DNA from: a virus | IMG/VR virus record: IMGVR_UViG_3300045988_138000 | Direction: 5' to 3' (one strand) | Length of the DNA stretch: 64,000 nt | Part shown: piece after piece, positions 21,513-63,394 of the stretch | How the letters are laid out: each line of letters begins with the position of its first letter | How positions within the stretch are numbered: the stretch's first letter is position 1 | Notes under the pieces: model-generated | Database searches by the model: none | What the model was told of the DNA's origin: nothing | What the model saw: only the letters and a program-made list of their open reading frames with translations | Program-made: the position numbers and the translations under genes

Positions 21513-22658
21513 TCATTTATCCGATAAAGAATAATTCCAATTAACTATCTTGCCAAATACTTTGACGGAGCATTTTTTTACGTGCTTAATAACATCGTCG
21601 GTTAGACAACTCTCTACCCTTTCGCATTGCTCCCGACTTGCCTTTAAAAGTATAGTCTTTCCATCGTAGGACATAAACCCAACCTTTCGCAGTTCGTCAC
21701 CAGCCTCTCCATCAAGCATAGATAAGAGCTGCTGCCACTCTCTCTCCCCTGGCTGCTCATCAGCAAAGAGCAACGTCTGTTCCTTGGGCGCTGTCGCCTT
21801 CATCATCTCCTCGAAAGTATCGTAAACATTAAACTCGATAAAAGCAGGATTACCTACCTTGCGCTTACCATTGTAGACAGGTTCATACGACACGCAAACG
21901 TCGAGTTGACCCATCTGCTTCAGTCGGTTTATATCGGCAATGCTATTGTCGAGTACATTCTTCTTGAATTGCGAAAACTTAGGATAGGTCTCTTTCACAA
22001 TTTCCGTACCACTAAATTCAAGCATACCTAAATACTTCTTGATTTTACTGACCGTAAGCCGGATTTTGCGCTCTTTCCAGTTATTGCCGCTTGCATCGCG
22101 CAGAATGTAATATATCATTGGCATACGCGCCACCTCACCAATCAAAGCAATGTTATCAGGATGTGACACATATCCCTCGGTCATATTGAAGGCATAGTCC
22201 AATACATAAAGGTGTTTGTCGGGATCTATCACTTGCGGGTTAAGCCCAAAAACAACTCCCGTGTTCTTAATAGACGTTTCGCCACTCAGAAAAACATTAT
22301 ACATGTGCATACCCCATGTACCATCCTCATTCTTCTTCGGACCTTCCACCTTTACGTCCAACACTTCTTTCATCGCTTGCTTCACGGCAAAGAAATTGTT
22401 TTCTGGTACACCTAACTCAGCATAGGAGATGTATATCTGGGTGACACCCGAATTTTTCACTGCCTCGGAGAACAGGGATTTGGGTACCTTGCGCGACTTA
22501 GCCAAATCTGAACCAAAGAACTCTTTTATGAAGGGCTGCAACTGCTCACTCACCTTCACCAGCACCGCCTGCTGCAACAGCGACAGGTTCTTGCTCAACC
22601 TGGTGAAGGCAAAAGGCGTATTTATCCACTTTTGCGGTAATCGTTTCTCGTTTTCCAT
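21513..22658 (-). CDS. plasmid-type replication initiator (Rep_3/RepB-like)
   Basis: The N-terminus INTPFAFTRLSKNLSLLQQAVLVKVSEQL fits the Rep_3 pattern (N..i.a...LsL.eqR). Iterons lie immediately upstream. Confidence 0.65.
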   Translation of the reverse strand: MENEKRLPQKWINTPFAFTRLSKNLSLLQQAVLVKVSEQLQPFIKEFFGSDLAKSRKVPKSLFSEAVKNSGVTQIYISYAELGVPENNFFAVKQAMKEVLDVKVEGPKKNEDGTWGMHMYNVFLSGETSIKNTGVVFGLNPQVIDPDKHLYVLDYAFNMTEGYVSHPDNIALIGEVARMPMIYYILRDASGNNWKERKIRLTVSKIKKYLGMLEFSGTEIVKETYPKFSQFKKNVLDNSIADINRLKQMGQLDVCVSYEPVYNGKRKVGNPAFIEFNVYDTFEEMMKATAPKEQTLLFADEQPGEREWQQLLSMLDGEAGDELRKVGFMSYDGKTILLKASREQCERVESCLTDDVIKHVKKCSVKVFGKIVNWNYSLSDK

Positions 22659-22677
22659 ATCGTTTCCTTTCCTTTGA

Positions 22678-23042
22678 GGTAAAAAGTTACTAAATCTTTT
22701 TACCTATTTACTATTTCGTTTTACCTATTTACTAACTATTTTTCTTTACCTTGTACTTAAATCACTGAAAATCAGTAATTTCTCATAAACTCCTATAATA
22801 TAGATAAGAAGAAACATATTTTTTCTTTATATATATATTTTAATAGTAAGGTAAAAATATTTAGTATATAGGTAAAAAGATTTAGTAAGATTTTACCTTA
22901 TCGTCACCTTTCGAGTAAAGCAATTTAGTACTTCACATTTAAGGTAAAAAGATTTAGTAAAATTTTACCTTATCGTCACCTTATGGGTAAAGCGATTTTT
23001 CTTTCTTATGTTTGAGGTAAAAAGATTTAGTAAGATTTTACC
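22678..23042. repeat. iteron field plus AT-rich stretch (candidate theta-type origin)
   Basis: ggtaaaaagatttagtaaRattttacc occurs at 22871, 22943 and 23016 (72-73-bp spacing, internal dyad GGTAAAA/TTTTACC), with variants at 22678 and 22850. ttacctatttacta occurs twice (22699, 22720). The AT-rich run 22790-22850 lies within the field. Confidence 0.75.
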
Positions 23043-23399
23043 TTAACCTTGAGAATATCTGTCGATAAACTCTATCACTCCCTGGGCAGCCAGTTCCTGA
23101 AGCGTCTTACCCGTACATTCCTTCAGACGAGCCAAGCGGAAATAATAATCCATGGGGATTGTTACCTTTACACTTTTCTCTGTCTTTAAAGGTTGCATGG
23201 ATAATGACTGTTGCGCTTCGGCTGTTGGCTGTTGGCTGCCAGTGGAAGAGGTGGTGGTAGCACTACCGCTCGCCGTACCCGTTGAAGGCATAAAAAATGC
23301 CGACTGTTGCGAGGTCTGTCCTTGCTCGTATATTCCTTCTATTTTATCCATTGCGTCTGATTTATTCAAACCGAATTTTTTTACATTTGGTCTTGCCAT
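23043..23399 (-). CDS. ribbon-helix-helix ParG/CopG-like partition/regulatory protein
   Basis: The C-terminus VKVTIPMDYYFRLARLKECTGKTLQELAAQGVIEFIDRY has an RHH layout. It lies directly downstream of parA, and the N-terminus looks disordered. Confidence 0.65.
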   Translation of the reverse strand: MARPNVKKFGLNKSDAMDKIEGIYEQGQTSQQSAFFMPSTGTASGSATTTSSTGSQQPTAEAQQSLSMQPLKTEKSVKVTIPMDYYFRLARLKECTGKTLQELAAQGVIEFIDRYSQG

Positions 23400-23456: not shown

Positions 23457-24329
23457 CTACTGAGGCATACTCTCTAAGATTTCTTTCGTAAATCGCTCAT
23501 AGTCCTGCCCTACCCTGCAGTAAGGTGCATAAGAAAAAATGTCGGTACCCATCGCCTGAGCTTCCACCATCTTGGTATCTCTGCGGGTATATGAATCGAA
23601 CACGTAGTCATCGAACTTCTCGCTCAGATATTCCTTGAACTGACGCGTCGCCTTGGTCTGGTCATTACTCATCACCTCCAACAGTCCACGAATATCCAGG
23701 TCCTCATTCAGGTCTTCCCTGGTCTCTATCACGGCATTGGTGATTTCTGCAATACCCTTTGTGGCCAACACTTCCAACTGGACGGGGATAACGACACTCG
23801 ATGCCGCCGCCAGCGCATTATAGGTAAGCAGCGACATGGCTGGAGGGCAGTCTATCAATACGTAGTCGAAGGCATCCAGGATGCTGCTTACGCCCTCGTC
23901 TGCGAGTTCTGTGCCCTGCATCTCCTGTAATGGCTTCAATAGGATTTTACGAAGGGCCTTGCGAGGCACCGCCATCTGGTTAAGAAAGGGCTCGATGCTG
24001 ACCATCTTCTGTGAGGCCGGAGCGAGGTAGATACCTTCCTGCATCTTATATACGGGCAGGGAGGTCTGGTTGATAAGAGCATCGTAGGTGGTAGGCTTAT
24101 TGTCGCTGTTCACCTGGTCCCAACCGAAAAGGAAAGACAGACTGACCTGTGGGTCGAGGTCTACGAGTAAGATACGTGGCTTTCGCTCCTTTCCGTCTGC
24201 ACCCTTTCCGAAGTACCCTTTACCGAAGCGACGCAGCCCTGTTGCTAAACTCTGTACCGTTGTGGTCTTGCCTACTCCACCTTTATGATTCACGAAGGCG
24301 AGTATTTCTTTCAATCTTGTTTCTGCCAT
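23457..24329 (-). CDS. parA: ParA/Soj-family partition ATPase
   Basis: Deviant Walker A FVNHKGGVGKTTT. 290 aa. Confidence 0.85.
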   Translation of the reverse strand: MAETRLKEILAFVNHKGGVGKTTTVQSLATGLRRFGKGYFGKGADGKERKPRILLVDLDPQVSLSFLFGWDQVNSDNKPTTYDALINQTSLPVYKMQEGIYLAPASQKMVSIEPFLNQMAVPRKALRKILLKPLQEMQGTELADEGVSSILDAFDYVLIDCPPAMSLLTYNALAAASSVVIPVQLEVLATKGIAEITNAVIETREDLNEDLDIRGLLEVMSNDQTKATRQFKEYLSEKFDDYVFDSYTRRDTKMVEAQAMGTDIFSYAPYCRVGQDYERFTKEILESMPQ

Positions 24330-24349
24330 AATCTTTTTATTTAATGAAT

Positions 24350-24930
24350 AATCTATTCGATAATGCTATAATGTGTAACCAAATACACCGAAGTACATAA
24401 GTACATTAGTACTAAAGTACGAACCTACGTATCTACGTACCTACATACGTACCTATGATTTTTCATACGTGCAAAGATACAACTAAAAAACATAACTACC
24501 AACTATTTTCCGTTTTATATTTTAAATATTAAGTATTTTTATAGGTTCGCATCTATGAACGAATGAAAATATGAACGTAGATACCTATCAGCATACGAAC
24601 CCACGTACCTACGTGCGAATAAACGTATGAACCTACGTACCTACGTGCATACGAAAGTGCATAAGTACGTAGGTGCAAAGATACGAAAGTACGAATGCGT
24701 GGAAGTTTGGACGTATCGAAGTGGAAAGGAGTGGACGTTGAAAGGTGCAATCGTATAAAGTACTAAAGTACTAAAGTGCAATAATATTAAAGTATAATGG
24801 TGTATTTGCATAAAAGTACAAAAGTACAATAGTTTTAAAGTGTAATTGTGTAAACGTATAAAAGTACTAAAGTACTAAAATACAATAACACAAAAGTACA
24901 ATGGTGCAAAAGTATAAAAGCGCAATGGTC
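24350..24930. repeat. centromere-like field of short repeats upstream of parA
   Basis: 8-bp periodic TAAAGTAC/AAAAGTAC runs (24758-24790, 24810-24830, 24858-24885), CTACGTAC runs (24423-24455) and a duplicated gaaccYacgtacctacgtgc (24597, 24629). No credible ORF. Confidence 0.6.
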
Positions 24931-24943
24931 ATCGCCATTAGGG

Positions 24944-25135
24944 GTAACAGCCATCAGTAGCACGCCCTGTAAGGGCAGAAGCTCTTAGCCCAGGGTAACA
25001 CCCTGGGTATAATGGCAAAAAGCAATGCGCCCTGTAAGGGCAAAAGCTTTATACATTGCCAGGAGATTTTAAGCTTTTGCCCTTACAGGGCGACAGGTTA
25101 CCGCATAAAATAACCCAGGGCGTGCTGGGGGAACT
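24944..25135. repeat. cluster of GC-rich palindromes (REP-like), including a 22-bp perfect inverted repeat
   Basis: GCCCT-gta-AGGGC (24963), CCCAGGGT-aac-ACCCTGGG (~25000) and cgccctgtaagggcaaaagctt (25028-25049) / aagcttttgcccttacagggcg (25071-25092). Confidence 0.7.
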
Positions 25136-29133: not shown

Positions 29134-29219
29134 AATCTGTCGTTTTTTTACTTTTTGTTTTGAAATCAGCAAGAAGGCTCTTTTTACCTTTTTACTTTTT
29201 TACTTTTTTACCTTTAAAA

Positions 29220-34948: not shown

Positions 34949-35632
34949 TTATTTCCGATTTTCCGCTAATATTTTTCTCACGCTATAATAAGGCGTATTA
35001 AACGGATATTTCACTTCGTTGATGACGTACACCACCATCGGCTCATTCATGCGCAATGTATCTCGACACTCCACACGGCCATACATGCCATGTGCCATGA
35101 GATTCAGGGCGCACATCTTGCAAGCAATAGGATCGCTGTCCTGTGCCACATACTCGAAGCGGCGGCCAGCCGAATGGTCCAGTTTGCTCTTATCCATGTA
35201 GTGAGCCAGGAGCAAACGTCCGCTACCTGCTGCGCAGTCGTTCACCTTGCCATGATTCCCCGCTCCCAAGGCACTAATCCGTGCCATAAGGTCCGAAATA
35301 CTCTGAGGCGTGAAGAACTGCCCCGTTTTCGATGCCTTGCCACGGCTCAAATACATTTCTTCATACAGGATACCGAACACGTCCAGCCACTCGCCACGAT
35401 TCATCGCTGTTGCCACATCGCCCAGCCACTGGAGGGCGAGAGCGGAAAACTCAGGATTCTGCTCTGTGCAACTCAAAATGTGCTGGCTATATTCAACGGT
35501 GCCAGCCTTGAAAGCGTCAATGCTGAAGAACTCTATAAGATAGTCGCAAAAGTCGCTCAGAGCCAGTTCCTGCGGTCTGCTATGCTTGTTAGCCTGTTCG
35601 GTCAATACGTCGATATACTTCTTTTTATCCAT
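34949..35632 (-). CDS. HsdM-like N6-adenine methylase fragment (SAM-binding half; no NPPF/NPPY motif seen)
   Basis: Motif X TGQFFTPQSISDLMA and motif I VNDCAAGSGRLLL are present. The protein ends ~35 aa after VECRDTL without a (N/D)PP(F/Y) motif. Confidence 0.7.
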   Translation of the reverse strand: MDKKKYIDVLTEQANKHSRPQELALSDFCDYLIEFFSIDAFKAGTVEYSQHILSCTEQNPEFSALALQWLGDVATAMNRGEWLDVFGILYEEMYLSRGKASKTGQFFTPQSISDLMARISALGAGNHGKVNDCAAGSGRLLLAHYMDKSKLDHSAGRRFEYVAQDSDPIACKMCALNLMAHGMYGRVECRDTLRMNEPMVVYVINEVKYPFNTPYYSVRKILAENRK

Positions 35633-38048: not shown

Positions 38049-38324
38049 TTAGGCGCAGCGCATGAAATCGTCCAGATAATAACGCGTTCCGTATATGGTA
38101 AAATACGGACGGCATTCAGCTTCAGGATCACGCGGGCAAGTGTATTTGATGCGCTGCCATCGTTGTGCCGTGTGCTCGTTTCTGCTGGTGCAGTCGCGCC
38201 ACAATACCCCTTCTCCTCCATCGTCTATAACGATGCAATAACCGCCATAATTGTTAGTCTGAAGAAAAGCGCAGCCGAACTTTAAAAGCTCGTCGAACTC
38301 CTGTTTTTTAGTGATACGTGCCAT
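38049..38324 (-). CDS. hypothetical protein
   Basis: 91-aa ORF. A TAATTTTG -7 box (38390-38397, minus strand) lies upstream. Confidence 0.6.
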   Translation of the reverse strand: MARITKKQEFDELLKFGCAFLQTNNYGGYCIVIDDGGEGVLWRDCTSRNEHTAQRWQRIKYTCPRDPEAECRPYFTIYGTRYYLDDFMRCA

Positions 38325-38628
38325 AATCTATAAGCCGAATTGCTGTTGCCGCCAGATCTAAATTGTTATTTGTTTCTTATTTTCGTTTGCAAAATTACTA
38401 TATACATTTGAAATAGCCAAATATTTAAATTAAAAAGTTATCAAATACATTTATTTTTAACGTTTATACACAATTATATGTATTTGTAATAGGTATTATT
38501 TACATTTGTTTACAATTCCCTGATCTCTGTGATATGCTATAAAGTCTATAACGAGCTGCCAGGAGTGGGGGCACCGCTGCAAAATCTCTAAAATCTGTGA
38601 TATACTATAATATGTATAACGTAACAAA

Positions 38629-39064
38629 GTGGGCACCATTGAGGCGCACCAGGAACGGCGCAACGGTGCAACGGGCAACACTCCACACCTGGCAGCATCG
38701 AGGCACCAGGACGGCGCAAAATGGTGCAACGGACAACACTCCACGCCTGGCAGCATCGAGGCACACCAGGAAGGCGCAAATGGCACGGCGGCAATACTCC
38801 ACACCTGGCAGCATTGAGGCGCCAGGAACGGCGCAAAAGGGCACGGCGGCAATACGTCCACACCTGGCAGCATCGAGGCGCACCAGGAACGGCGCAAAGG
38901 GTGCACGGGTAACACTCCACACCTGGCAGCATTGAGGCGCACCAGGAAGGCGCAAATGGCACGGCGGCAATACTCCACACCTGGCAGCATTGAGGCGCAC
39001 CAGGAAGGCGCAAATGGCACGGCGGCAATACTCCACACCTGGCAGCATTGAGGCGCACCAGGAA
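38629..39064. repeat. GC-rich tandem array 1: about 7.4 copies of a 58/59-bp unit, non-coding
   Basis: The anchor CCTGGCAGCAT recurs at 38688, 38746, 38804, 38863, 38922, 38980 and 39038. The last two units are identical. Confidence 0.9.
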
Positions 39065-39065
39065 C

Positions 39066-39099
39066 GAAAAAAAACGGGCTGCAAACAATTTGCAGCCCG
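39066..39099 (-). terminator. rho-independent terminator after 39107..39457
   Basis: cgggctgcaa-acaat-ttgcagcccg (10-bp stem) followed by a T8 run on the minus strand. Confidence 0.75.
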
Positions 39100-39106
39100 C
39101 GAACGG

Positions 39107-39457
39107 TTAAAACATCCGATATAATTCATTATACATATTATATGTATTATCTTGATTCAAGAACTCAAGGAAGGCCGCGGCGCGTTTTTTAGTTAAAACT
39201 TTGTAGTTATGCAAAGTTAAAAACGCTTTCTTTGCGGCCGCCTTAATCTTCTCGAGTACGTCAATAATAACGTTTTTTATTGCGCTTTGGTACAGGTAAC
39301 TTTCCCACGTTCTGTTATAATAACGTATCTTTGTGCGGGCAACTTTGAACGTGTTATTTTTATATAATGTAACTTCGTGTCCCCAACTGGTGCGAGTTCT
39401 CCAGGACTCGCACACAAATGTAAATTTTACGCCGTTTATTTCTTTGTTATAAATCAT
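39107..39457 (-). CDS. hypothetical protein
   Basis: 116-aa ORF. Confidence 0.65.
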   Translation of the reverse strand: MIYNKEINGVKFTFVCESWRTRTSWGHEVTLYKNNTFKVARTKIRYYNRTWESYLYQSAIKNVIIDVLEKIKAAAKKAFLTLHNYKVLTKKRAAAFLEFLNQDNTYNMYNELYRMF

Positions 39458-39492
39458 AATATTAAGTATTTTTGTTATTGTTAGATATTTAT

Positions 39493-39825
39493 TTATTTTT
39501 CGCAGAAGGTACGAGCCCAGAAGCTGCAGACCTCGAAAGACGAGCGGCGACCATTGCAGAAAGCGGGAAAAAGACGCTCAACCACTGCCAAGGCATTTGT
39601 TTCGATATTCATTGCCACCTCAAACGCAGGACCAAGCAAGAAAAAGAAGGAGAGAACGACACGCGCGGCGATACCGGTAATACAAAATACACTAATTAAT
39701 GAAACAAGGAGATAGACACAACCTAACAGAGCGGAAACAGTTAGGACGATCACAACGAGGAGAGAGAGAAGGAAGGCGGCACGCTTGGCGGCCTTTACTG
39801 AATTATTTACAAAATTTGTCTTCAT
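39493..39825 (-). CDS. membrane protein
   Basis: 110 aa with several hydrophobic helices (AAFLLSLLVVIVLTVSALLGCVYLLVSLISVFCI..). Confidence 0.6.
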   Translation of the reverse strand: MKTNFVNNSVKAAKRAAFLLSLLVVIVLTVSALLGCVYLLVSLISVFCITGIAARVVLSFFFLLGPAFEVAMNIETNALAVVERLFPAFCNGRRSSFEVCSFWARTFCEK

Positions 39826-39857
39826 AATCTATATATTTTTTTAAGTTGTTAGATGAA

Positions 39858-39876
39858 GGACCGGCGGCGCCGGTCC
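39858..39876. repeat. GC hairpin ggaccggc-ggc-gccggtcc (copy 1; part of a ~45-bp intergenic repeat)
   Basis: The same 8-bp stem recurs at 40298-40316 with the complementary loop. Confidence 0.7.
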
Positions 39877-39886
39877 CTGGTTATTT

Positions 39887-40264
39887 CTATTTTTGCAAAC
39901 TTGCTATAAAAGCATCTACAGAATCGAAATCATTTTTATTTGAATGATCGTGCAAAAAATTCACTCTAAACTTTTCATAACTCGTTATACAATCTTTTCT
40001 AACTTTGCCGTTTAAAAAGACACGTTCACCACACGCACCACCACGGGGCGAAACGTTCATAGAGCCACACGCAACCTTTAAACGATACAAAACGTTTATA
40101 ACGTCGAATGTTTCAACGTGTTTTGTGTTTTTGTCGCTGTATCCCGTTGTAGCTATACCAAAAACAGCAAGACGACAAATTGCTTTATAAACGCGTGAAT
40201 TTTTACGGATTCCATAATTAAATGGATTCTTTATAAAGCTATGTAATTTATCTATTTGTCTCAT
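39887..40264 (-). CDS. hypothetical protein
   Basis: 125-aa ORF. Confidence 0.6.
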   Translation of the reverse strand: MRQIDKLHSFIKNPFNYGIRKNSRVYKAICRLAVFGIATTGYSDKNTKHVETFDVINVLYRLKVACGSMNVSPRGGACGERVFLNGKVRKDCITSYEKFRVNFLHDHSNKNDFDSVDAFIASLQK

Positions 40265-40297
40265 AATTATAATTATTAAAAAATTGTTTGATGTAAG

Positions 40298-40316
40298 GAC
40301 CGGCGCCGCCGGTCCT
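40298..40316. repeat. GC hairpin ggaccggc-gcc-gccggtcc (copy 2)
   Basis: See 39858-39876. Confidence 0.7.
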
Positions 40317-40325
40317 GGTTCTTGT

Positions 40326-40700
40326 TTAAAGTTTTATTTCTTTCATGTTCGCCAGATCAAAAATAGCTATCTGGTTGTTATAACGTCCAAGATCTTTTGC
40401 GGTTTGCAAATCGTCTACGATTACGGTTGCGTCAAAATAAAATTGATTATTGTCTCCATTATACCAGCCGCCAAAGGCGTTTATTTCTGGATGCTCAGAA
40501 ACGTATTTTACGACGTTTGCCAGACCATCCAGGCCAAAAGAGTCTTGCGTATCTGCAACGGCTACAGCGTAACCGCTTGTCACCGGCTGCAAGTTGGCAG
40601 CGTCCACGGTAAAGCCTTCTTTGTTAGCCATTGCGATCGCTGCAAGTGCGATCAATACTTTAGTTTGTTGTTTATTCATTGTTTTAATGCGGAATTTCAT
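40326..40700 (-). CDS. hypothetical protein, possibly secreted
   Basis: 124-aa ORF (alternative start MNKQQTK at 40679) with the N-terminal hydrophobic stretch VLIALAAIAMA. A TACTTTTG -7 box lies at 40747-40754 on the minus strand. Confidence 0.6.
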   Translation of the reverse strand: MKFRIKTMNKQQTKVLIALAAIAMANKEGFTVDAANLQPVTSGYAVAVADTQDSFGLDGLANVVKYVSEHPEINAFGGWYNGDNNQFYFDATVIVDDLQTAKDLGRYNNQIAIFDLANMKEIKL

Positions 40701-40896
40701 ACTGTTGCCCCCAGCTTTATATTATTTGTTTCTTGTTTTACAGTTGCAAAAGTACTACATATAATTGTAATAGCCAAATTTTTCGATTAAAAAGTTATCA
40801 AATGTATTTATTTTTAACCTCCTTAAACAAATATATATGATTTGTTTACACTTATTTGCAAATAGATATAATTGCATACCTTATTATATATAGGGT

Positions 40897-41350
40897 CGTT
40901 GCGGTTCTGGTGGCTGGTGGCTCCCTGGTGGCCGCCTCCCTGGTTCCAGTGGTGGAGGTGCCTCCCTGGTGGCTGGTGCCTCCCTGGTGGCTGCCTTCCT
41001 GGTGGTGCTGGTGGCCGCCTCCCTGGTTCCAGTGGTGGAGGTGCCTCCCTTGGTGGCTGGTGGCTCCCTGGTGGCCGCCTTCCTGGTGGTGTTGGTGGTG
41101 CCTCCCTGGTTCCAGTGGTGGAGGTGCCTCCCTGGTGGCTGCCTTCCTGGTGGTGCTGGTGGTGCCTCCCTGGTTCCAGTGGTGGAGGTGCCTCCCTTGG
41201 TGGCTGGTGTCCTCGTGGCTGGTGGCTGCCTTCCTGGTGGTGTTGGTGGTGCCTCCCTGGTTCCAGTGGTGGAGGTGCCTCCCTTGGTGGCTGGTGTCCT
41301 CGTGGCTGGTGGCTGCCTTCCTGGTGGTGCTGGTGGTGCCTCCCTGGTTC
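40897..41350. repeat. GC-rich tandem array 2: composite 64-87-bp units, non-coding, CCTGG-dense
   Basis: The anchor TGGTTCCAGTGGTGGAGGTGCCTCCC recurs at 40941, 41024, 41107, 41171 and 41258, with a truncated copy at 41345 (spacing 83, 83, 64, 87, 87). Confidence 0.9.
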
Positions 41351-41724
41351 CTCGCCCGCATATTCACAGCCGGACACGCGGGCGGGGGCACGCAAGGCTC
41401 CTCAGTGCGGCGGCGCTCTCGCTTGTGAATCGAAGTTGCAAGGAAAGTTTGCTGGATGCGATTGCTCTAATTATCAATTATTTAGGTTTTCCTTTCGGGA
41501 TGGCTTTTACAGGTTGGCTTTTCTGTTAAGCCTTTGATTATTAACTATTTATAGGGGCGAAAGAATAATTCAGATACAACAAAACAGATTATATACCTCT
41601 CTTTTTTTACAAAAAAATACAAAAGAAAACGCTGCAAACAGATAAAACTATACTCTTTTGAACAGAAATAAACGTATATAATAATTATTTTTCAGAAAAA
41701 CTTGCAAAATACAAATATATGTAT

Positions 41725-41732
41725 TAACTTTG
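41725..41732 (+). promoter_or_regulatory. -7 box TAACTTTG (plus strand) upstream of 41758..42051
   Basis: Lies 26 nt upstream of the ATG. Confidence 0.5.
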
Positions 41733-41757
41733 CAGCCAAAACAATACAAATATAAAC

Positions 41758-42051
41758 ATGAGAACGAAAATTGACATTCGTCGCGCCATAAAAGAGCGCG
41801 GTTACACCATTACGTCTTTCTGTCAGAAGTTCGACCTAAAGACGCAGAACATCATTCAGAATTACATCAAAGGAAACCCTACAATAAAACGTTTGGAGGA
41901 CCTTTGCGAGAAACTGGATTGCGACATCACTGATTTGTTCTATCCAATAGGCGATTCGAGCGATGCACAGCCTACTATCAACACCACCGCCTTCTGTCCT
42001 CATTGTGGTGCAAAGGTTCGTGTCGGTGTGATGCTCCTGCCCGAAGAATAA
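41758..42051 (+). CDS. HTH (XRE-like) regulator with C-terminal CxxC element
   Basis: IKERGYTITSFCQKFDLKTQNIIQNYIKGNPTIKRLEDLCEKLDCDITDLF, followed by FCPHCGAKV. Confidence 0.7.
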   Translation: MRTKIDIRRAIKERGYTITSFCQKFDLKTQNIIQNYIKGNPTIKRLEDLCEKLDCDITDLFYPIGDSSDAQPTINTTAFCPHCGAKVRVGVMLLPEE

Positions 42052-42614: not shown

Positions 42615-42650
42615 CAAGTACTACGAAAGTACTATGAAAGTACTACGACG
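42615..42650. repeat. 3 x 11-bp AGTACTAYGAA repeats upstream of 42118..42555
   Basis: agtactacgaa agtactatgaa agtactacgac. Shares the GAAAGTAC core with the par-proximal repeats. Confidence 0.6.
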
Positions 42651-52428: not shown

Positions 52429-52677
52429 CTAAGACATTTTTTTCTCTACGATAGCTGTCACATCAGACACAAGTTGTAAGTCTTTTGCCTCTTCGGGCGA
52501 AATCTTGATATGGAACATGGTTTCGGTCTGAAGAACGAGATCGAGAAAGTCGATAGACTCAAGAGCGAGATCATCACGCAGGTTAGAGCTGTCGGTCACT
52601 TCTGCTGTCGATGCCCAAGGTGTGCGCAGGCCTTCAACTATATTGAACACCCGCTGGCGAATATCTTCTTTGTTCAT
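52429..52677 (-). CDS. acyl carrier protein
   Basis: 82 aa. RDDLALESIDFLDLVLQTE aligns with the ACP D-S-L phosphopantetheine-attachment helix. ATGA overlap with the KAS gene. Confidence 0.8.
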   Translation of the reverse strand: MNKEDIRQRVFNIVEGLRTPWASTAEVTDSSNLRDDLALESIDFLDLVLQTETMFHIKISPEEAKDLQLVSDVTAIVEKKMS

Positions 52678-53888
52678 AATGATTGGAATTTAGAAATGAT
52701 GAATGACGAGTTGGTGCCTCCGAAGCCAAAGGCATTACAAAGAATATGGTGTGATAAGTACTCGCGTGACTGCATGACGAGATTGAGCTTAGGAAAAGCA
52801 TTCTCGGCTGTGGTAGCCGCACCGAAGATAGTGTCTGTGTTGAGCATCATGGCGGCTTGAACGGCCTGCGATACACCAGCCATCCAGCACTCGTGACCCG
52901 TCATACCCTTGGTGGCTACGATATAAGGGCTCTCGGGGAACACCTTTCCGATGGCTTCTGCCTCTGCAGCATCGCCCTGCTCCGTACCTGTGGCATGGGC
53001 GAGGAGTACATCTATCATTCCGGCATCGAGTCCAGCCGACTCTATGGCCTTAATCATTGCCACCTCTTCCTGATAAGCATCCGGGGTACAGATGCTGGTG
53101 CCATTAGTGGAAAAGCCGTAGCCTGAAAGTTCTGCCACGGGCGAGACTTCATAATCCTCAAAACGCAAGCTGTCGGAAGGCTCAAGAATGACACAGGCTG
53201 CACCACCCGAAGGAGCAAGACCATTGCGGGCTTTGCCGAAAGGCTGCACCTTGTCGGGCGAGAAAACGCCCATGGCATCAAACGACAGCATGGAGAAGGG
53301 ACCAGTCTCCTGTGCTCCAACGACAATCACCATGTCGGTTTGGCGCGCATCAAGAAGCATCTTGGCAAGACCGATGGCATGACCTCCTCCGGCACAAGCC
53401 CCGCTGACGGTAAGCGAGAGTCCTTTCAGTCCGTAGATAGAGGCGAGGCTCATGCTGACGGTGGAATTGAGTGTGCGGAACACTGCACCTGCCCCTAAAC
53501 GTCGGGTGTCGCGCTGTGTAATGGCAGTGGTCATTGCCTGATAGTTGTCTCCCGCCGTAGAGTCGTTGCTGACGATGACCGATACATTGTGAGACTGCAA
53601 GAACTCGGGAAGAATATTGGCTTCCACCAGAGCCTCGTTGACGGCAGATAAGGAATATAGGGTCGGTTCGGAAAGACATTGCCGTTGACCCCTGGTGAGT
53701 TTTGAAAACTTCCAAGGGTTCGGATCATTTATCTTTCCGCACAGGTCGGACTGATAACCTTTCTCGCTGCGCGCGGGGTCGTGGTGCAGACCGCACTCTC
53801 CATACGCCAGCTTCTGTGCGACGGAAAAGGTATCGTTGCCAAGACTGGAAACAATACCTGTGCCTGTGATTAATATTTTTCTATCCAT
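52674..53888 (-). CDS. beta-ketoacyl-ACP synthase (KAS I/II, Cys-His-His type)
   Basis: Start moved to MDRKILITGTGIV (ATG at 53888). Active-site Cys in VSGACAGGGHAIG, His residues in HATGTEQGD and GMTGHECW, and a C-terminal NAFGFGGTNSS. Confidence 0.85.
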   Translation of the reverse strand: MDRKILITGTGIVSSLGNDTFSVAQKLAYGECGLHHDPARSEKGYQSDLCGKINDPNPWKFSKLTRGQRQCLSEPTLYSLSAVNEALVEANILPEFLQSHNVSVIVSNDSTAGDNYQAMTTAITQRDTRRLGAGAVFRTLNSTVSMSLASIYGLKGLSLTVSGACAGGGHAIGLAKMLLDARQTDMVIVVGAQETGPFSMLSFDAMGVFSPDKVQPFGKARNGLAPSGGAACVILEPSDSLRFEDYEVSPVAELSGYGFSTNGTSICTPDAYQEEVAMIKAIESAGLDAGMIDVLLAHATGTEQGDAAEAEAIGKVFPESPYIVATKGMTGHECWMAGVSQAVQAAMMLNTDTIFGAATTAENAFPKLNLVMQSREYLSHHILCNAFGFGGTNSSFIISKFQSL

Positions 53889-53917
53889 GATTATGTTTGT
53901 TTGATTAAAGAATACTC

Positions 53918-56731
53918 TTACAAGGCATAGACGGTCAGTTCTACCTCTCCAATGCCTTCCTTGGCCGTGATAGTTGTATTCACCTTGTCGATAAGACATT
54001 TCACACCTCCGATGTTCCACCACGTCTTCCAGTGGTTAGGTATGTCGGCTATCTGTGCGACAGAAGCCGAACAGCGGATGATGTACTTCTTGCGGTTAAG
54101 CAGGAAATAGGCGTAGGGCAGAATGAAGGTATCGAAAAGACCGCGTGAGCGTATCTTGGTTATCACATTGCCGTTAGTGTCCACCTCGTCGGGGGCGCAG
54201 AGTGAAACATCCTTATATTCAGGCTTACTGAGCCATGACGGCTCTTTGAAAGCACGTATCTTGAGCGAGAAACGTTCACCTTTGCCTCTGCCTTCCTGAA
54301 TACCATTATAGTCGAAGACATTGCCCATCATGTCAATAGAGTCGCAAGCAAGAGCATATTCGCCTGCTGCCGTGCGCCACTTGGAAGTACCGAAGTGGTC
54401 GTAGTTATAGTCATAGGGCTCTGTAGTTGCATTCGTACCGCCGCCTCGCATCATGGCCAAGGCAAAGCCCCATCGTGAATCGTCTTGAAGAGGCGAGTTG
54501 CCGTCTTCGGTGTTTGACGGGTCGTAGCTCTCGACGAGTTTCAACGACTGCTGCATATAGAAGTCGCAGAAAGGCGAGGAGATGGTCTGGTTGATGATTT
54601 GCTCGACAAACTCATGCTCCATGTCCTCATCGACATAGGCGCAGAGGATAGGCTGTCCTTCCTTGATAACGACACCATAGGTTGTTGTCTTTGAATCGTC
54701 ATAGTACTTTGCCGTATGAGAGCCGTAAGCAGCCTCTATCTCCTTGAAATAGTTGACATCATTGAACGGCACGGGGGTGAAGTCGATGGTGATGTCGTGG
54801 ATGAAGTCTTCATTCTCCTCGCTGCAATCGCCATACTCCACACCCTTGTACTGGCCTACCTCGAAAAGCACAGGCTTGAGGTCGGCTGTAGTAGTGGCGT
54901 CGCCATTCACCTTCACGCGATAGGCATTGCCCGTCTTCGGGTCGATGTAGCATCTTTTATCGCCAGAACTTAAATTATGAAAGAAGTCAACGTAATCTCG
55001 ATCGTAAACCGTTTCGTTGTCTCCACTTCCCGGTTCGGGATAGTCGATATAGTCGTAGTCGGTAGCATAGCCCATATTTTTATTCTTGCGGCTGTCCTTG
55101 ACGTTCTGCTGCTGATCCTTGGCATCGCTCTCTTCGGAGTATCGCATACGTACACCCGTTATCTTCTCGCTGACGGGAATGATAGAATGAACGTCTGCGC
55201 GAAACGTGCGTGCTGGCTGTCCACTCTCGCGAAGCACGTCACGGATGAGGTAGGCCGTGACTTTCTTTTGCTCATAGTCGTAGGAAAACTTGATGCCGAA
55301 GGCGCTCTCCAAGGATGAGATAATCGTGCTGACACTCTCATCGGGGAAGTTGTCGCTGTTGGCCACCATATAGAGCACGTTGGCCTGCACGTTGAACTTA
55401 GAGATTTGCGCCTCGATGCTGATACCTGTCACCTTTCCGCCCTCTTTTGTCGTCTCTCCCACCTGTATGTGTTCGGAAGTTCCTTCGTTAGTGGTAAGGG
55501 TGAGCTCGTTGACCGTCTTGTCCTCTGCCTTTACGATGTTGATTTTTCCACCACAACCGCGCGACTCCAACCAGGAGTTGATATGATCTTGCTTCTTGAA
55601 ATATCCTTCCTTAATCTCGCCTGCCTTCTTTTTCTTGGCGATGACTTCGGGGTCTTTATCCTCATAGTATGTTCCGTGATGTGGATGCTCTTTGGTGTCG
55701 TAGGCGCAAACGGTGGTGAAGAAACAGAGGTGCTTCATATCCTCTATCTGCATCAGTGCCGACTTGTCGAAGGTGACACCCAGGTGAGCAAACAGGCAGT
55801 CGAGAAAATAGAGTACATAGAAACAGATGCCCGACTGCGGACGGCGTGCGTCCAACACCCAATAGGGATAAAGATCCTCGTTGGTCCACTTGCAGTCCTT
55901 CGTGCTGATAACGTCGCTCGATGTGGTGCCATCGTCAGCAAGTCCGTGGTGCTTGTAGCAGATACGGGCGTTGCAATAAGCTGCCGGACGGCCTGCGCCA
56001 TCTGTCTCGCCATAGGCTGCCGACGTGTTGATATAGTCGCCATTCTTGGCGATGGCGGGCTCGTTGACTGTATTTCCGTTGGGGTAGGCTCGTGACGACT
56101 TTCTCTTAGCGTCGGCCTTCATGTGTAAAGGATAAAGGATATTGGTGGTGTACTCCTGGCACGATGCAGGATAGGAGAAGCCAAGAGCCTGCGGTTCGAG
56201 CACTTTACTTACACTTACGTGCTCGGCATGAATGGTTCGGGTGACAGTCTCATCATCCTTATGCTTTCCTCCCTCCACAAACACACTGACATTTACAACA
56301 GGGTCGCTCTCGATGTCTACCCTTACGTTGCCTATCTTCTCGCCGATGATCAGTTCATCCTTGATGGGGATGTCACGACAGTTGAGCGAACCGATGAGGT
56401 CGCTGAAACTCTGTCTGCCTGCATTAATACTCATAGAGAGCGAGTCTTTTATCTCTTCAGCATCCTGCATGACGAGCGTACCGTTGCGGAAGGGCAGTCC
56501 GTCGGCATGAATGCGCGTAGGCAAATGCTCCATATTGACAGCACGAAACGATGCCCGCACGTCATCGATGTTCTTTACCAGCCATCGGTTGCCGTCGAGC
56601 GGAATGGAAAACGGATAGGCGAACATCTCGTTATCATTGAACACAGGGTTCTGGTCCTCTATATCGATAGAGAAATCATCGGGCAGCGACACAGGTCGGT
56701 CGTTGATAAGTATGGTGAGATGTGAGTTCAT
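53918..56731 (-). CDS. large virion (baseplate/tail-like) protein
   Basis: 937-aa ORF, translationally coupled (ATGA) to 56728..57396. The function is inferred from size and context only. Confidence 0.7.
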   Translation of the reverse strand: MNSHLTILINDRPVSLPDDFSIDIEDQNPVFNDNEMFAYPFSIPLDGNRWLVKNIDDVRASFRAVNMEHLPTRIHADGLPFRNGTLVMQDAEEIKDSLSMSINAGRQSFSDLIGSLNCRDIPIKDELIIGEKIGNVRVDIESDPVVNVSVFVEGGKHKDDETVTRTIHAEHVSVSKVLEPQALGFSYPASCQEYTTNILYPLHMKADAKRKSSRAYPNGNTVNEPAIAKNGDYINTSAAYGETDGAGRPAAYCNARICYKHHGLADDGTTSSDVISTKDCKWTNEDLYPYWVLDARRPQSGICFYVLYFLDCLFAHLGVTFDKSALMQIEDMKHLCFFTTVCAYDTKEHPHHGTYYEDKDPEVIAKKKKAGEIKEGYFKKQDHINSWLESRGCGGKINIVKAEDKTVNELTLTTNEGTSEHIQVGETTKEGGKVTGISIEAQISKFNVQANVLYMVANSDNFPDESVSTIISSLESAFGIKFSYDYEQKKVTAYLIRDVLRESGQPARTFRADVHSIIPVSEKITGVRMRYSEESDAKDQQQNVKDSRKNKNMGYATDYDYIDYPEPGSGDNETVYDRDYVDFFHNLSSGDKRCYIDPKTGNAYRVKVNGDATTTADLKPVLFEVGQYKGVEYGDCSEENEDFIHDITIDFTPVPFNDVNYFKEIEAAYGSHTAKYYDDSKTTTYGVVIKEGQPILCAYVDEDMEHEFVEQIINQTISSPFCDFYMQQSLKLVESYDPSNTEDGNSPLQDDSRWGFALAMMRGGGTNATTEPYDYNYDHFGTSKWRTAAGEYALACDSIDMMGNVFDYNGIQEGRGKGERFSLKIRAFKEPSWLSKPEYKDVSLCAPDEVDTNGNVITKIRSRGLFDTFILPYAYFLLNRKKYIIRCSASVAQIADIPNHWKTWWNIGGVKCLIDKVNTTITAKEGIGEVELTVYAL

Positions 56732-58540: not shown

Positions 58541-59596
58541 TTAGAACATGAGTGGTGTGACGAATATCTTGCCGCCCTCCTGGTTGTTCTCGTAGCCGCC
58601 GGATTTGTCTGCAGCGGATGATGAGGGAGCGGTGGTGGAAGTGGAGGAGGACGCGGTGGTGTCGGCGGCTTCCTGAGCCTGCTTCTCGGCCTTGAGGAGG
58701 CGATAGACGGAATCACGGAGCGAGATGGATTCGTTGTGCGCCAACAGACGGGTAGCCTTGTCGAAGGCGATGACGGTGGTTCGCTCCACGAGGTAGGCGG
58801 TCATCAGGCGGCGCACCTTGCGGAGGAGTTTGTCGCGGTCGTCGGCGTGCTGAAGACGGTCGATGAGCTCGTCGCCGAACACGTCGGCTATGTATTCGTC
58901 CTGTACGTAGCGGAGGTCGGGCAGCAGACGGATGAACTTGTCGCGGTTGTCGTAAACGTCGAGGTACTGCTGCAGGATGCTGCACGTGGGGATGAGGAGG
59001 TCGTGGTGCAGATAGTAGTACTTGCTCTCCTGCCACAACAGCACTATCTCCTCGATGGCTGTGTGTACTTCGGTACTTTCGTCTTTTGGTACTTCGGTAC
59101 TTGCGCTGCCGTCTTTCGGGGCGGTTGCTTCGGCTGGTGTGTTGATGCTGACGGCCCAGTTTTCGAGAAGTATGAGGAGGTTGTTGAGCGACACCATGGC
59201 CTCCTTTTTATATCCAGCCACTCCCTTGTCGAGGAGCTTTTCTGTAGCGGGGTCGTAGTCGGTAGAGGAGGCGATGTTGACGCCTGCGCCGTTGACCGAA
59301 AGGATTTGCTGGTAGGCGTATCGCGCCATGGCATCGTTGACCACCATACGCTGTGCGAGGTCAAGGAGGACGCTCCATGGTTTCTTGGCATAGGAGCCGT
59401 CGGTCTTCTGCTGATAGAAGCCGTCGCCGCCCAGGGTGGTGTAGTATTCGCAGAGCCGTGTGTAGAGCGGCTTGCCCAACTTGTCCTGCAGGAAGTCCTT
59501 CTCGCTGTTGTCGAGCACGCCCTGCAGGTTGGCTATCTCGTCCACGGCATTGCTGGGCAGGATAAGCCGGAGTTCTTGATTGGTGGAAAGTATCAT
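58541..59596 (-). CDS. hypothetical virion-module protein
   Basis: 351-aa ORF with a Ser/Thr-rich C-terminal tail. The long antisense ORF 58736..59866 was judged spurious. Confidence 0.65.
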   Translation of the reverse strand: MILSTNQELRLILPSNAVDEIANLQGVLDNSEKDFLQDKLGKPLYTRLCEYYTTLGGDGFYQQKTDGSYAKKPWSVLLDLAQRMVVNDAMARYAYQQILSVNGAGVNIASSTDYDPATEKLLDKGVAGYKKEAMVSLNNLLILLENWAVSINTPAEATAPKDGSASTEVPKDESTEVHTAIEEIVLLWQESKYYYLHHDLLIPTCSILQQYLDVYDNRDKFIRLLPDLRYVQDEYIADVFGDELIDRLQHADDRDKLLRKVRRLMTAYLVERTTVIAFDKATRLLAHNESISLRDSVYRLLKAEKQAQEAADTTASSSTSTTAPSSSAADKSGGYENNQEGGKIFVTPLMF

Positions 59597-63332: not shown

Positions 63333-63394
63333 AATGTGCTAACACTTTTCATCAAATGTGCTAACACTTTTCGTCAAATGTGCTAACACATTGC
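63333..63394. repeat. 2.8 copies of a 22-bp tandem repeat in the leader of 62707..63261
   Basis: aatgtgctaacacttttcRtca x2, plus a partial copy. Confidence 0.85.

Follow-up and report, generated by a model that had tools for sequence, protein, structure and literature searches.

What a strongly strand-biased tandem repeat is doing beside a repressor gene is the question raised by positions 40897 to 41350 of IMG/VR virus record IMGVR_UViG_3300045988_138000, a 64,000-nucleotide (nt) stretch of viral DNA referred to here as the window. The segment, which we call array 2 to distinguish it from a second array in the same window (array 1), combines an extreme base composition with a fixed place between a conserved leader and a block of predicted promoters. 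We propose that array 2 is a non-coding, fast-evolving minisatellite that forms the variable 3' body of a leader module heading an early or accessory region beside a Cro/CI-type repressor gene. It may be a slippage-amplified hairpin arm that is transcribed as a uridine-free, C-rich leader RNA and attenuates or insulates early-operon transcription. We give this reading as a whole a probability of roughly 0.4, and several alternatives are weighed against it below.

Array 2 is built from composite units. The 26-nt anchor TGGTTCCAGTGGTGGAGGTGCCTCCC, recognized in an earlier note on this DNA, occurs at full length at 40941, 41024, 41107, 41171 and 41258, with the spacings of 83, 83, 64 and 87 nt given there, and a truncated sixth copy (TGGTTCC) at 41345 supplies the final spacing of 87 nt. 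Tandem Repeats Finder (TRF) reported overlapping periods of 83, 64, 87 and 151 with matches of 86 to 98%, and the units proved to be assembled from common sub-repeats, as the note had supposed. The strand asymmetry is equally real. Of the 454 nt on the plus strand, 179 are G, 137 T, 128 C and just 10 A. All ten A residues fall in CCAGTGGTGGAGG, and this A count is the minimum among the 454-nt stretches of the window (median, 109). Its minus-strand composition of 39% C, 30% A, 28% G and 2% T makes the array effectively thymine-free, and its G+C content is 68%. Since any stop codon requires a T on one strand or an A on the other, all frames of array 2 are open, and the six open frames and five overlapping open reading frames (ORFs) of 170 to 220 amino acids (aa) listed by the note are an automatic by-product of composition. 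The note's high density of CCTGG was also found (16 sites, or about 35 per kb, versus 1.5 CCWGG per kb elsewhere in the window), but it is not a conserved feature: the homologous arrays of relatives L020, L022, L051 and L006 contain no CCWGG site, and on this comparison the density is confined to the lineage of the window. Array 2 was also found in an independent assembly, the contig L083 (Logan run SRR29664296) of a near-identical element. This 1195-bp short-read contig, seen in 5 samples, has its start in the last array 2 unit and its end within array 1, so the presence of array 2, though not its copy number, is real beyond the assembly in which it was noticed.

The nature of the array became apparent from its relatives. 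An IMG/VR search with the 124-aa protein encoded downstream returned 22 loci and a leader DNA pattern returned 48 stretches; the non-redundant set comprises 41 modules from related uncultivated Bacteroidales phage contigs, given here by their L numbers. The earlier note missed two things: array 2 makes up the variable portion of a conserved leader module, and it is an inverted relative of array 1. In minus-strand orientation, which we use throughout and in which most genes of the window lie, the module consists of a divergent helix-turn-helix (HTH) gene, a promoter, about 100 nt of AT-rich DNA, the leader, a hairpin, array 2, an end motif, a promoter block and a gene for a protein of 117 or 124 aa (Table 1). 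Among relatives the flanks are near-identical while the body varies in length, unit length (10 to 87 nt), sequence and orientation. The hypervariable segment is everything from CCGCCGCNCTGA to CTATATATAATAAGG, whereas the leader blocks, the ATATGC sequence and the end motif are conserved.

Table 1. Features of the array 2 module and array 1 in the window
Feature	Position	Strand	Remarks
Cro/CI-type HTH gene, divergent	41758..42051	+	HTH_26 / HTH_3 plus weak zinc-ribbon match
Bacteroidetes-type promoter TTTG-N17-TATATTTG	41712..41740	-	Predicted; faces leader and array 2; back to back with the HTH gene promoter
Non-coding leader	41353..41591	-	Conserved, ~240 nt; blocks CCCCTATAAATAGTTAATAATCAA, TAAATAATTGATAATTAGAGCAATCG, GAAACTTCGATTCA, CCGCCGCACTGAGGAG
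Junction hairpin CGCCCGC / GCGGGCG	41353..41384	-	Encloses ATATGC (41363-41358); ATG at 41361-41359
Array 2	40897..41350	-	Composite tandem repeat, units 83, 83, 64, 87, 87 nt; hypervariable body of the module
End motif TATATATAATAAGGT	40878..40892	-	Conserved; closes the variable body in nearly all relatives
Promoter block P2	40700..40836	-	Three predicted TTTG / TAnnTTTG promoters, -7 boxes 40835, 40806, 40754
Downstream gene, 124 aa (117 aa if start at 40679)	40326..40700	-	More than 1000 homologues
Array 1	38632..39066	+	7.4 copies of a 58-nt unit, T-poor on + strand; inverted relative of array 2 (inverted pairs I4-I8)

The extent of this variation is best seen where the surroundings match. 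Bodies with matching flanks measure 199 nt in L010 versus 30 nt in L011, and 148 nt in L019 versus 524 nt in L022, and one 117-aa protein, 100% identical in both, is encoded after 370 nt of array in L073 and after a single-copy body of 110 nt in L075. That single-copy body aligns with the array 2 unit of the window, so array 2 arose by expansion of a T-poor segment that already existed. Of the 41 modules, 21 have C-rich bodies with T at or below 8% and mean fractions of 0.42 for C and 0.25 for G (C/G 1.8); the bodies of L011 and L001 have 10 to 11% T. Most T-poor bodies are tandem arrays, with periods that include 10, 15, 23, 39, 48, 50, 62 and 69 nt. A further group of about 15 of the 41 modules has G-rich, A-poor bodies, made either of degenerate GNGAGGGTGYGC repeats with GT-rich tails or of long hairpins with a purine arm and a pyrimidine arm. 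Contig ends cut 8 modules inside the body. Together with the ends of L083, these breaks indicate that the arrays are real, variable in populations and disruptive to short-read assembly, which in turn accounts for the contigs of about 1 kb on which most homologues of the 117/124-aa protein lie. Within the T-poor bodies, the rare thymines recur in the motif GCCC(T/C)(G/C)(A)ATG(A/G)TCCA (L010, L073, L075, L012 and L008), and the conservation of this motif suggests a sequence-specific site embedded in the repeats.

On the leader side, the HTH gene marks an immunity or regulatory region. The leader itself is single in the window, where an nhmmer profile matched the minus strand at 41353-41591 alone (E = 7e-74) and found no copy next to array 1. 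Its primary sequence is strongly conserved in alignments of the relatives. The 26-nt block TAAATAATTGATAATTAGAGCAATCG is near-invariant and holds the inverted repeat TAATT-GAT-AATTA, and a second block reads CCGCCGCACTG. Sets of 11, 14 and 24 leaders, folded with RNAalifold, yielded neither a convincing consensus structure nor covariation. Rfam searches at gathering and permissive thresholds left the window and 10 related loci without a match; the only hits, three at chance level (E about 4), lay elsewhere in 38300-41800. The leader could be an operator-rich DNA region or an RNA element acting through its primary sequence. In 17 of 35 non-redundant loci, the window and 16 others, its predicted promoter stands at a matching distance from block 2 (-264 to -272). 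The hairpin cgcccgc...gcgggcg, which the earlier note had placed at the end of the array, is present but marks the start of array 2 on the strand that carries the promoter and leader, and its 3' arm extends into the first unit. The ATATGC that it encloses is invariant or nearly so across 24 aligned relatives; a hairpin across ATATGC is predicted for L046 and L075 and for neither L001 nor L011.

At its other side, array 2 ends on the minus strand at TATATATAATAAGGT, within which lies a TAA-TAA pair. A 190-nt stretch with three predicted promoters and no terminator comes next. Block P2 in this stretch is a direct repeat, 81% identical, of block P1 (38340-38480, about 140 nt), which lies upstream of the next cassette. 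The sequence common to the upstream side of both arrays thus represents minus-strand promoters for the neighboring genes and not for the arrays. According to the predicted promoters, P2 drives the 117/124-aa gene, and P1/P2 is a reusable promoter block placed ahead of successive small-gene cassettes; these cassettes are separated by GGACCGGCGGCGCCGGTCC hairpins at 39857-39876 and 40297-40316. The 117/124-aa protein belongs to no Pfam or PHROG family, and its AlphaFold2 model (predicted local distance difference test score [pLDDT], 92) had no PDB match at E <= 0.001. In L030, L038, L041 and L065, all with G-rich bodies, the first cassette, about 100 to 700 nt downstream, looks by eye like a gene for a HicA-like toxin with one for a HicB-like antitoxin after it, in place of the 117-aa gene. 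The type of body may go together with the kind of cassette behind it.

The origin and possible role of array 2 can be put together as follows. The ancestor was a single-copy, GC-rich and T-poor segment, the 3' arm of the hairpin centered on ATATGC. Replication slippage or unequal recombination amplified this arm to five or six composite units, an event repeated independently in the phage group, and in relatives the same amplification led to other unit lengths and copy numbers. Most probably the minus strand is transcribed from the promoter at 41712-41740, which would yield a uridine-free, C-rich RNA without A-U or G-U pairs and, in its array portion, without internal start codons, stop codons or U-tracts. 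The role that we prefer for such an RNA is a cis-acting one: lying between the promoter near the repressor and the promoter block ahead of the downstream cassette, it would attenuate or insulate transcription. In the phage of the window, a long stretch free of ribosomes and with C in excess of G would suit Rho loading, and in relatives with G-rich bodies stable hairpins could give an equivalent outcome.

The comparisons show the anatomy of the module, its conserved flanks and hypervariable body, the lack of a conserved reading frame, the expansion from one copy and a location away from origin and centromere. From the sequence, we infer minus-strand transcription of array 2, and the attenuator with its Rho step is speculative. 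Three observations favor the transcript. The leader promoter recurs at a fixed offset in 17 of 35 loci. No Bacteroidetes-type promoter is directed into array 2 from the opposite side. The long hairpins of L025 and L034 depart from Watson-Crick pairing on the sense strand at 16 G.T versus 3 A.C positions, an excess expected if the hairpin was selected, or mutated, as a sense single strand. The array of L051, taken as sense RNA, is predicted to be nearly unstructured (-0.155 kcal/mol per nt). A Rho-utilization (rut) site would call for 70 to 80 nt or more of untranslated, little-structured RNA with C in excess of G behind a promoter. The array of the window has 39% C versus 28% G and a promoter upstream, yet it folds more than its shuffles, and about 15 relatives have G-rich bodies.

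A number of findings weigh against the proposed attenuator or insulator RNA. Array 2 of the window is predicted to fold more than its shuffled versions (-158 versus -140.5 +/- 7.8 kcal/mol); it folds somewhat because it holds GGAGG/CCUCC pairs. The orientation of the body to the leader is not fixed, as the G-rich bodies resemble the T-less arrays best when inverted, and the two arrays of the window are themselves related in inverted orientation. A purely sense-RNA role in Rho loading does not extend to the G-rich modules, for which an orientation-independent role of the double-stranded DNA, or none, is simpler. Furthermore, Rho loading does not need an absence of U, which leaves the lack of thymine unexplained by Rho. 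No terminator or 3' end is visible in the sequence after array 2, and the leader promoter was located in only half of the loci, with a 17-nt spacer that is on the short side. Finally, variants that introduce T do occur within 12 arrays (21 C>T and 14 A>T, versus 53 A<->G), so selection against T is moderate at most.

Two alternatives survive this comparison best, each possible although we hold it to be distinctly less likely than the leader RNA. The first is that the segment works as double-stranded DNA, either as a multivalent protein-binding array or as an inert GC-rich spacer, insulating the repressor-proximal promoter from the promoter block in either orientation. It would accommodate one sequence family occurring in both orientations relative to the leader, with arrays 1 and 2 as inverted copies flanking a cassette, and a thymine-free/adenine-free duplex cannot hold the host promoter motifs TTTG / TAnnTTTG on either strand. 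Short motifs common to otherwise different arrays (GAGG(A/C)CACC and CACC, and GCCCTGAATGATCC in L010, L073 and L075) and the 10-nt base period of many arrays at the array 1 position point the same way. However, the bodies of L073 and of L075/L077 are wholly different although these phages have identical leaders and HTH gene starts; the bodies are thus not operators tailored to that repressor. Moreover, unit lengths of 15, 23, 39, 48, 50, 62, 69 and 83 to 87 nt allow no common helical phasing. The hairpin G.T excess in relatives, indicating a constraint on the single-stranded sense strand, also argues against a double-stranded role, as does the location elsewhere of the plasmid-type binding arrays (iterons and ParA-associated repeats).

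The second alternative, on which we place about the same rather low likelihood, denies the array any function of its own. A low-complexity stretch prone to slippage and template switching would simply be tolerated in a permissive spacer, its asymmetry a legacy of the hairpin arm from which it grew. Near-identical phages differ in copy number and in unit boundaries; L001, L011 and L075 have a single copy or a 30-nt remnant with the module apparently retained; inversions and hairpin-type rearrangements occur at the array 2 position in relatives; and the single-copy ancestor was already T-poor (7% T). All of this is what tolerance would produce. Against it, most T-poor bodies, by sequence reading and TRF, are expanded to 150 to 620 nt with independent unit boundaries, unrelated units at the array 1 position share their polarity in all 17 relatives with an array there, and C<->T variants (21) are fewer than A<->G variants (53) within arrays although C is the commonest base. 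Expansion, polarity and variant counts suggest some constraint, and none of them is decisive.

A role for the RNA in trans is less likely again. In its broader form, leader and body would be a hitherto undescribed phage non-coding RNA gene with a scaffold 5' part and a nuclease-resistant, multivalent, uridine-free sponge tail, for example for Rho, and an arms race of gut Bacteroidales with their phage-plasmids would drive copy number and sequence; we regard this as quite unlikely. As a decoy or sponge proper, which seems to us a slightly longer shot, the uridine-free repeats would bind a host factor (Rho, a binder of C-rich RNA, or an RNase or toxin in the manner of a type III antitoxin or pseudo-ToxI), turnover reflecting the arms race. 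The array is multicopy, weakly structured and free of starts and stops on the strand that bears the promoter, and its extreme variation between strains stands beside a highly conserved leader. The absence of U would also remove the AU-rich or U-dependent sites favored by many endoribonucleases. Nevertheless, no partner protein is identifiable, the adjacent 117-aa protein lacking a ToxN, CptN or TenpN signature and a PDB fold match; the units are irregular within one array, unlike those of type III antitoxins; and the G-rich inverted bodies of relatives would not bind the same factor. The 117-aa neighbor was accordingly dropped as an RNA-binding partner or toxin. Co-evolution of a G/U-rich "anti" segment of the leader with its own array was likewise unsupported by pairing energies, since pairing with the own array was no better than with arrays of other phages (-35.0 versus -31.8 +/- 6.5 kcal/mol, ranks scattered).

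Very improbable is a translated gene, in which the ATG at 41361-41359 opens a stop-free ORF of about 169 codons for a disordered protein rich in Pro, His, Thr and Gly that tolerates changes of frame; the peptide predicted from the minus-strand ORF includes MRARNQGGTTSTTRK. An ATG stands immediately before the thymine-free run in 40 of 41 listed sequences, the end motif offers TAA-TAA, the ORF is open to the end in thymine-free arrays, and thymine-free codons specify only disorder-promoting residues. Openness is nevertheless an automatic consequence of the absent T. In L005, L010, L025, L034 and L038, a stop codon closes the ORF that opens at the conserved ATG long before the end motif is reached, and L012 has ATT in place of the ATG. 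Moreover, L016 and L020 read their common unit CCACCGAGGACA in different frames, as HHHRG and PPRTP, respectively, the C-terminal tail being frame-dependent, and the ATG lies in a GC-rich hairpin, unlike the A/T-rich context before real genes here. The earlier note had argued against translation from unit lengths that are not multiples of three. Its conclusion stands, and the 83- and 64-nt units of array 2 do shift the frame internally, but the argument is weak alone because 6 of 12 related arrays have periods divisible by three, a proportion that could be counted for a gene and is not clearly above the chance one-third. With neither start nor frame conserved among relatives, and with units of the window that are not all multiples of three, a protein-coding tandem-repeat gene was rejected, and array 2, as judged by these comparisons, is not a gene. 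The earlier note's proposals of non-B DNA (G-quadruplex, i-motif or triplex) or of a Dcm/CCWGG site cluster are hardly credible and largely refuted by the relatives, for although the plus strand of array 2 has 17 overlapping two-tetrad (G2) motif starts and the 16 CCTGG sites, its non-B potential is negligible (no G3- or C3-type motif; longest homopurine run 5 and homopyrimidine run 8, hence no triplex-forming mirror repeat), the homologous arrays of L020, L022, L051 and L006 lack CCWGG, and arrays of 10/20-nt units such as TGTATCTCGC have no G runs.

If the body works as RNA, the module would represent a new kind of leader, attenuator or sponge in phages; as DNA, it would be a new insulator-like repeat. 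In either case, it lies at the regulatory heart of a phage-plasmid lineage that appears common in gut metagenomes, beside the repressor gene and at the head of an accessory cassette region (with HicAB pairs in relatives, by eye). The three-letter composition of the body is unusual and recurs with unrelated unit sequences. Novelty lies in a minisatellite in the regulatory region of an extrachromosomal element, joined to a conserved non-coding leader not described before. On the practical side, short-read assemblies of this group of phages break at the two arrays, which leaves many 1-kb and truncated viral contigs in public collections.

Array 1 directly follows a minus-strand intrinsic terminator (39074-39100), and a conserved 150-nt stretch with two copies of ATCACAGATATTAGRGAATT comes after it. 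Arrays at this position are A-poor on the gene strand in 17 of the 17 relatives that have one, with units that are either conserved (58 to 60 nt) or unrelated and of 10/20 nt (TGTATCTCGC, GTGGCTATCC and TGCTTGGATGCTCTTGTATG). A conserved RNA hairpin in the 58-nt unit was considered and abandoned, as the candidate helices, by inspection, are not kept among relatives.

The element that carries both arrays is an uncultivated Bacteroidales phage-plasmid of a widespread gut family. Large ORFs of the window encode a DnaN-like clamp, an NAD-dependent ligase, tail proteins and a ketoacyl synthase. A Rep_3-type initiator with a Rep3_C domain (21513-22658) has iterons upstream (22660-23050), repeats of AGGTAAAAAGATTTAGTAAGATTTTACCTTA with a 72-nt period in 2.4 copies plus 21-nt repeats, and 21513-23050 is probably the plasmid-type origin. 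A ParA-type ATPase gene (23457-24329) is preceded by short GTAC-type repeats (24340-24920). This 580-nt non-coding region is crowded with short repeats (AAAGTAC and ACGTACCTACGT; 8-nt and 48-nt periods) and is probably a centromere or operator. The pairing of Rep_3 with iterons and of ParA with repeats identifies the element as a phage-plasmid. The window's promoters are of the Bacteroidetes type (TTTG / TAnnTTTG), and the leader motif was found on three metagenome-assembled genome contigs, assigned to Bacteroidales, Tannerella and Prevotella. A search with the ligase for the closest cultured phage reached only about 28% identity, with no close annotated relative; blastn of the array region against a phage collection and a plasmid collection, and an exact anchor search in IMG/VR, returned no match. 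Other features of the window include GTAC-containing 8-mers similar to those near ParA at 29180-29215, 42616-42648 and 59065-59102; three copies of a palindrome-like motif, GCCCTGTAAGGGC(A), at 24940-25130, just past the ParA-associated repeats and with CCCAGGGT repeats between them; a 227-aa protein with an N-6 DNA methylase domain (34949-35632); a beta-ketoacyl synthase (FabF/KAS-like, with both Pfam domains) among the phage structural genes (52674-54023); and a 22-nt tandem repeat, AATGTGCTAACACTTTTCATCA, in 2.6 copies with 97% matches near the right end (63333-63389).

Several familiar identities were rejected for array 2. It is distant from the origin and centromere of its own element: the Rep_3 gene and its iterons, like ParA and its repeats, map to 21.5-24.9 kb, and no such gene adjoins it. 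A CRISPR array does not fit either, as the sequences that separate the anchors consist of sub-repeats in common (families D1, D2 and D4) and there are no unique spacers. A Chi-like reading of the octamer GCTGGTGG was dropped, the octamer being lineage-specific and arrays with unrelated units sharing no G-rich core. As for a telomere or protelomerase site, contigs end at variable points within the arrays rather than at a fixed palindrome. Literature searches covering tandem repeats in phages, phage-plasmids, and the promoters and RNA-binding proteins of Bacteroides yielded no description of the array and leader element.

Partial parallels exist nonetheless. Phage-plasmids are known for immunity RNAs embedded in leaders, namely P1 c4, P4 CI and N15 CA RNA. 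The present element resembles these in being a phage-plasmid (Rep_3, ParA) with a non-coding leader beside an immunity-type repressor and a G/U-rich segment complementary to downstream repeats, but it differs in having no Rfam C4 match, no superior cognate pairing and no conserved secondary structure. Known rut sites are about 70 to 80 nt long and neither tandemly repeated nor U-free. Array 2 shares with rut and the lambda nutR-tR1 region its location between a repressor-controlled early promoter and early genes and, if transcribed as we infer, a long untranslated RNA with C in excess of G; on the other hand, it is tandem and U-free, and relatives have G-rich bodies at the same place. With the type III antitoxins (ToxI, CptI and TenpI), it has in common a tandem array upstream of a small protein gene, and phage pseudo-ToxI repeats (PMC12283969) are a related comparison. 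The copy number of such arrays can expand in phages. ToxI-type units are, however, uniform at 34 to 37 nt, whereas those here are irregular, 64 to 87 nt long and GC-rich, and a promoter block rather than a terminator separates array 2 from the gene. A type III toxin-antitoxin system was thus rejected on its composite units, on the absence of a following terminator and on a neighbor protein without toxin family or fold.

The nearest described phenomenon to array 2 is found in the repeats of Borgs. These are head-to-tail, fast-evolving intergenic repeats, A-enriched and T-depleted on the gene strand, with no known function, although a regulatory RNA has been suggested (PMC9879509). Their unit number varies within populations, units arise independently in close relatives, and the lengths of intergenic units are mostly not divisible by three (PMC9879509). 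The likeness extends to a large extrachromosomal element, to the strand bias on the gene strand and to copy number and units that vary between close relatives, as they do here. In contrast, Borg repeats are perfect, very A-rich and spread genome-wide in elements of an archaeal host, whereas the host here is bacterial (Bacteroidales), and the two arrays in 64 kb are GC-rich, imperfect (86 to 98%), composite and held at fixed positions, one behind a leader and the other behind a terminator.

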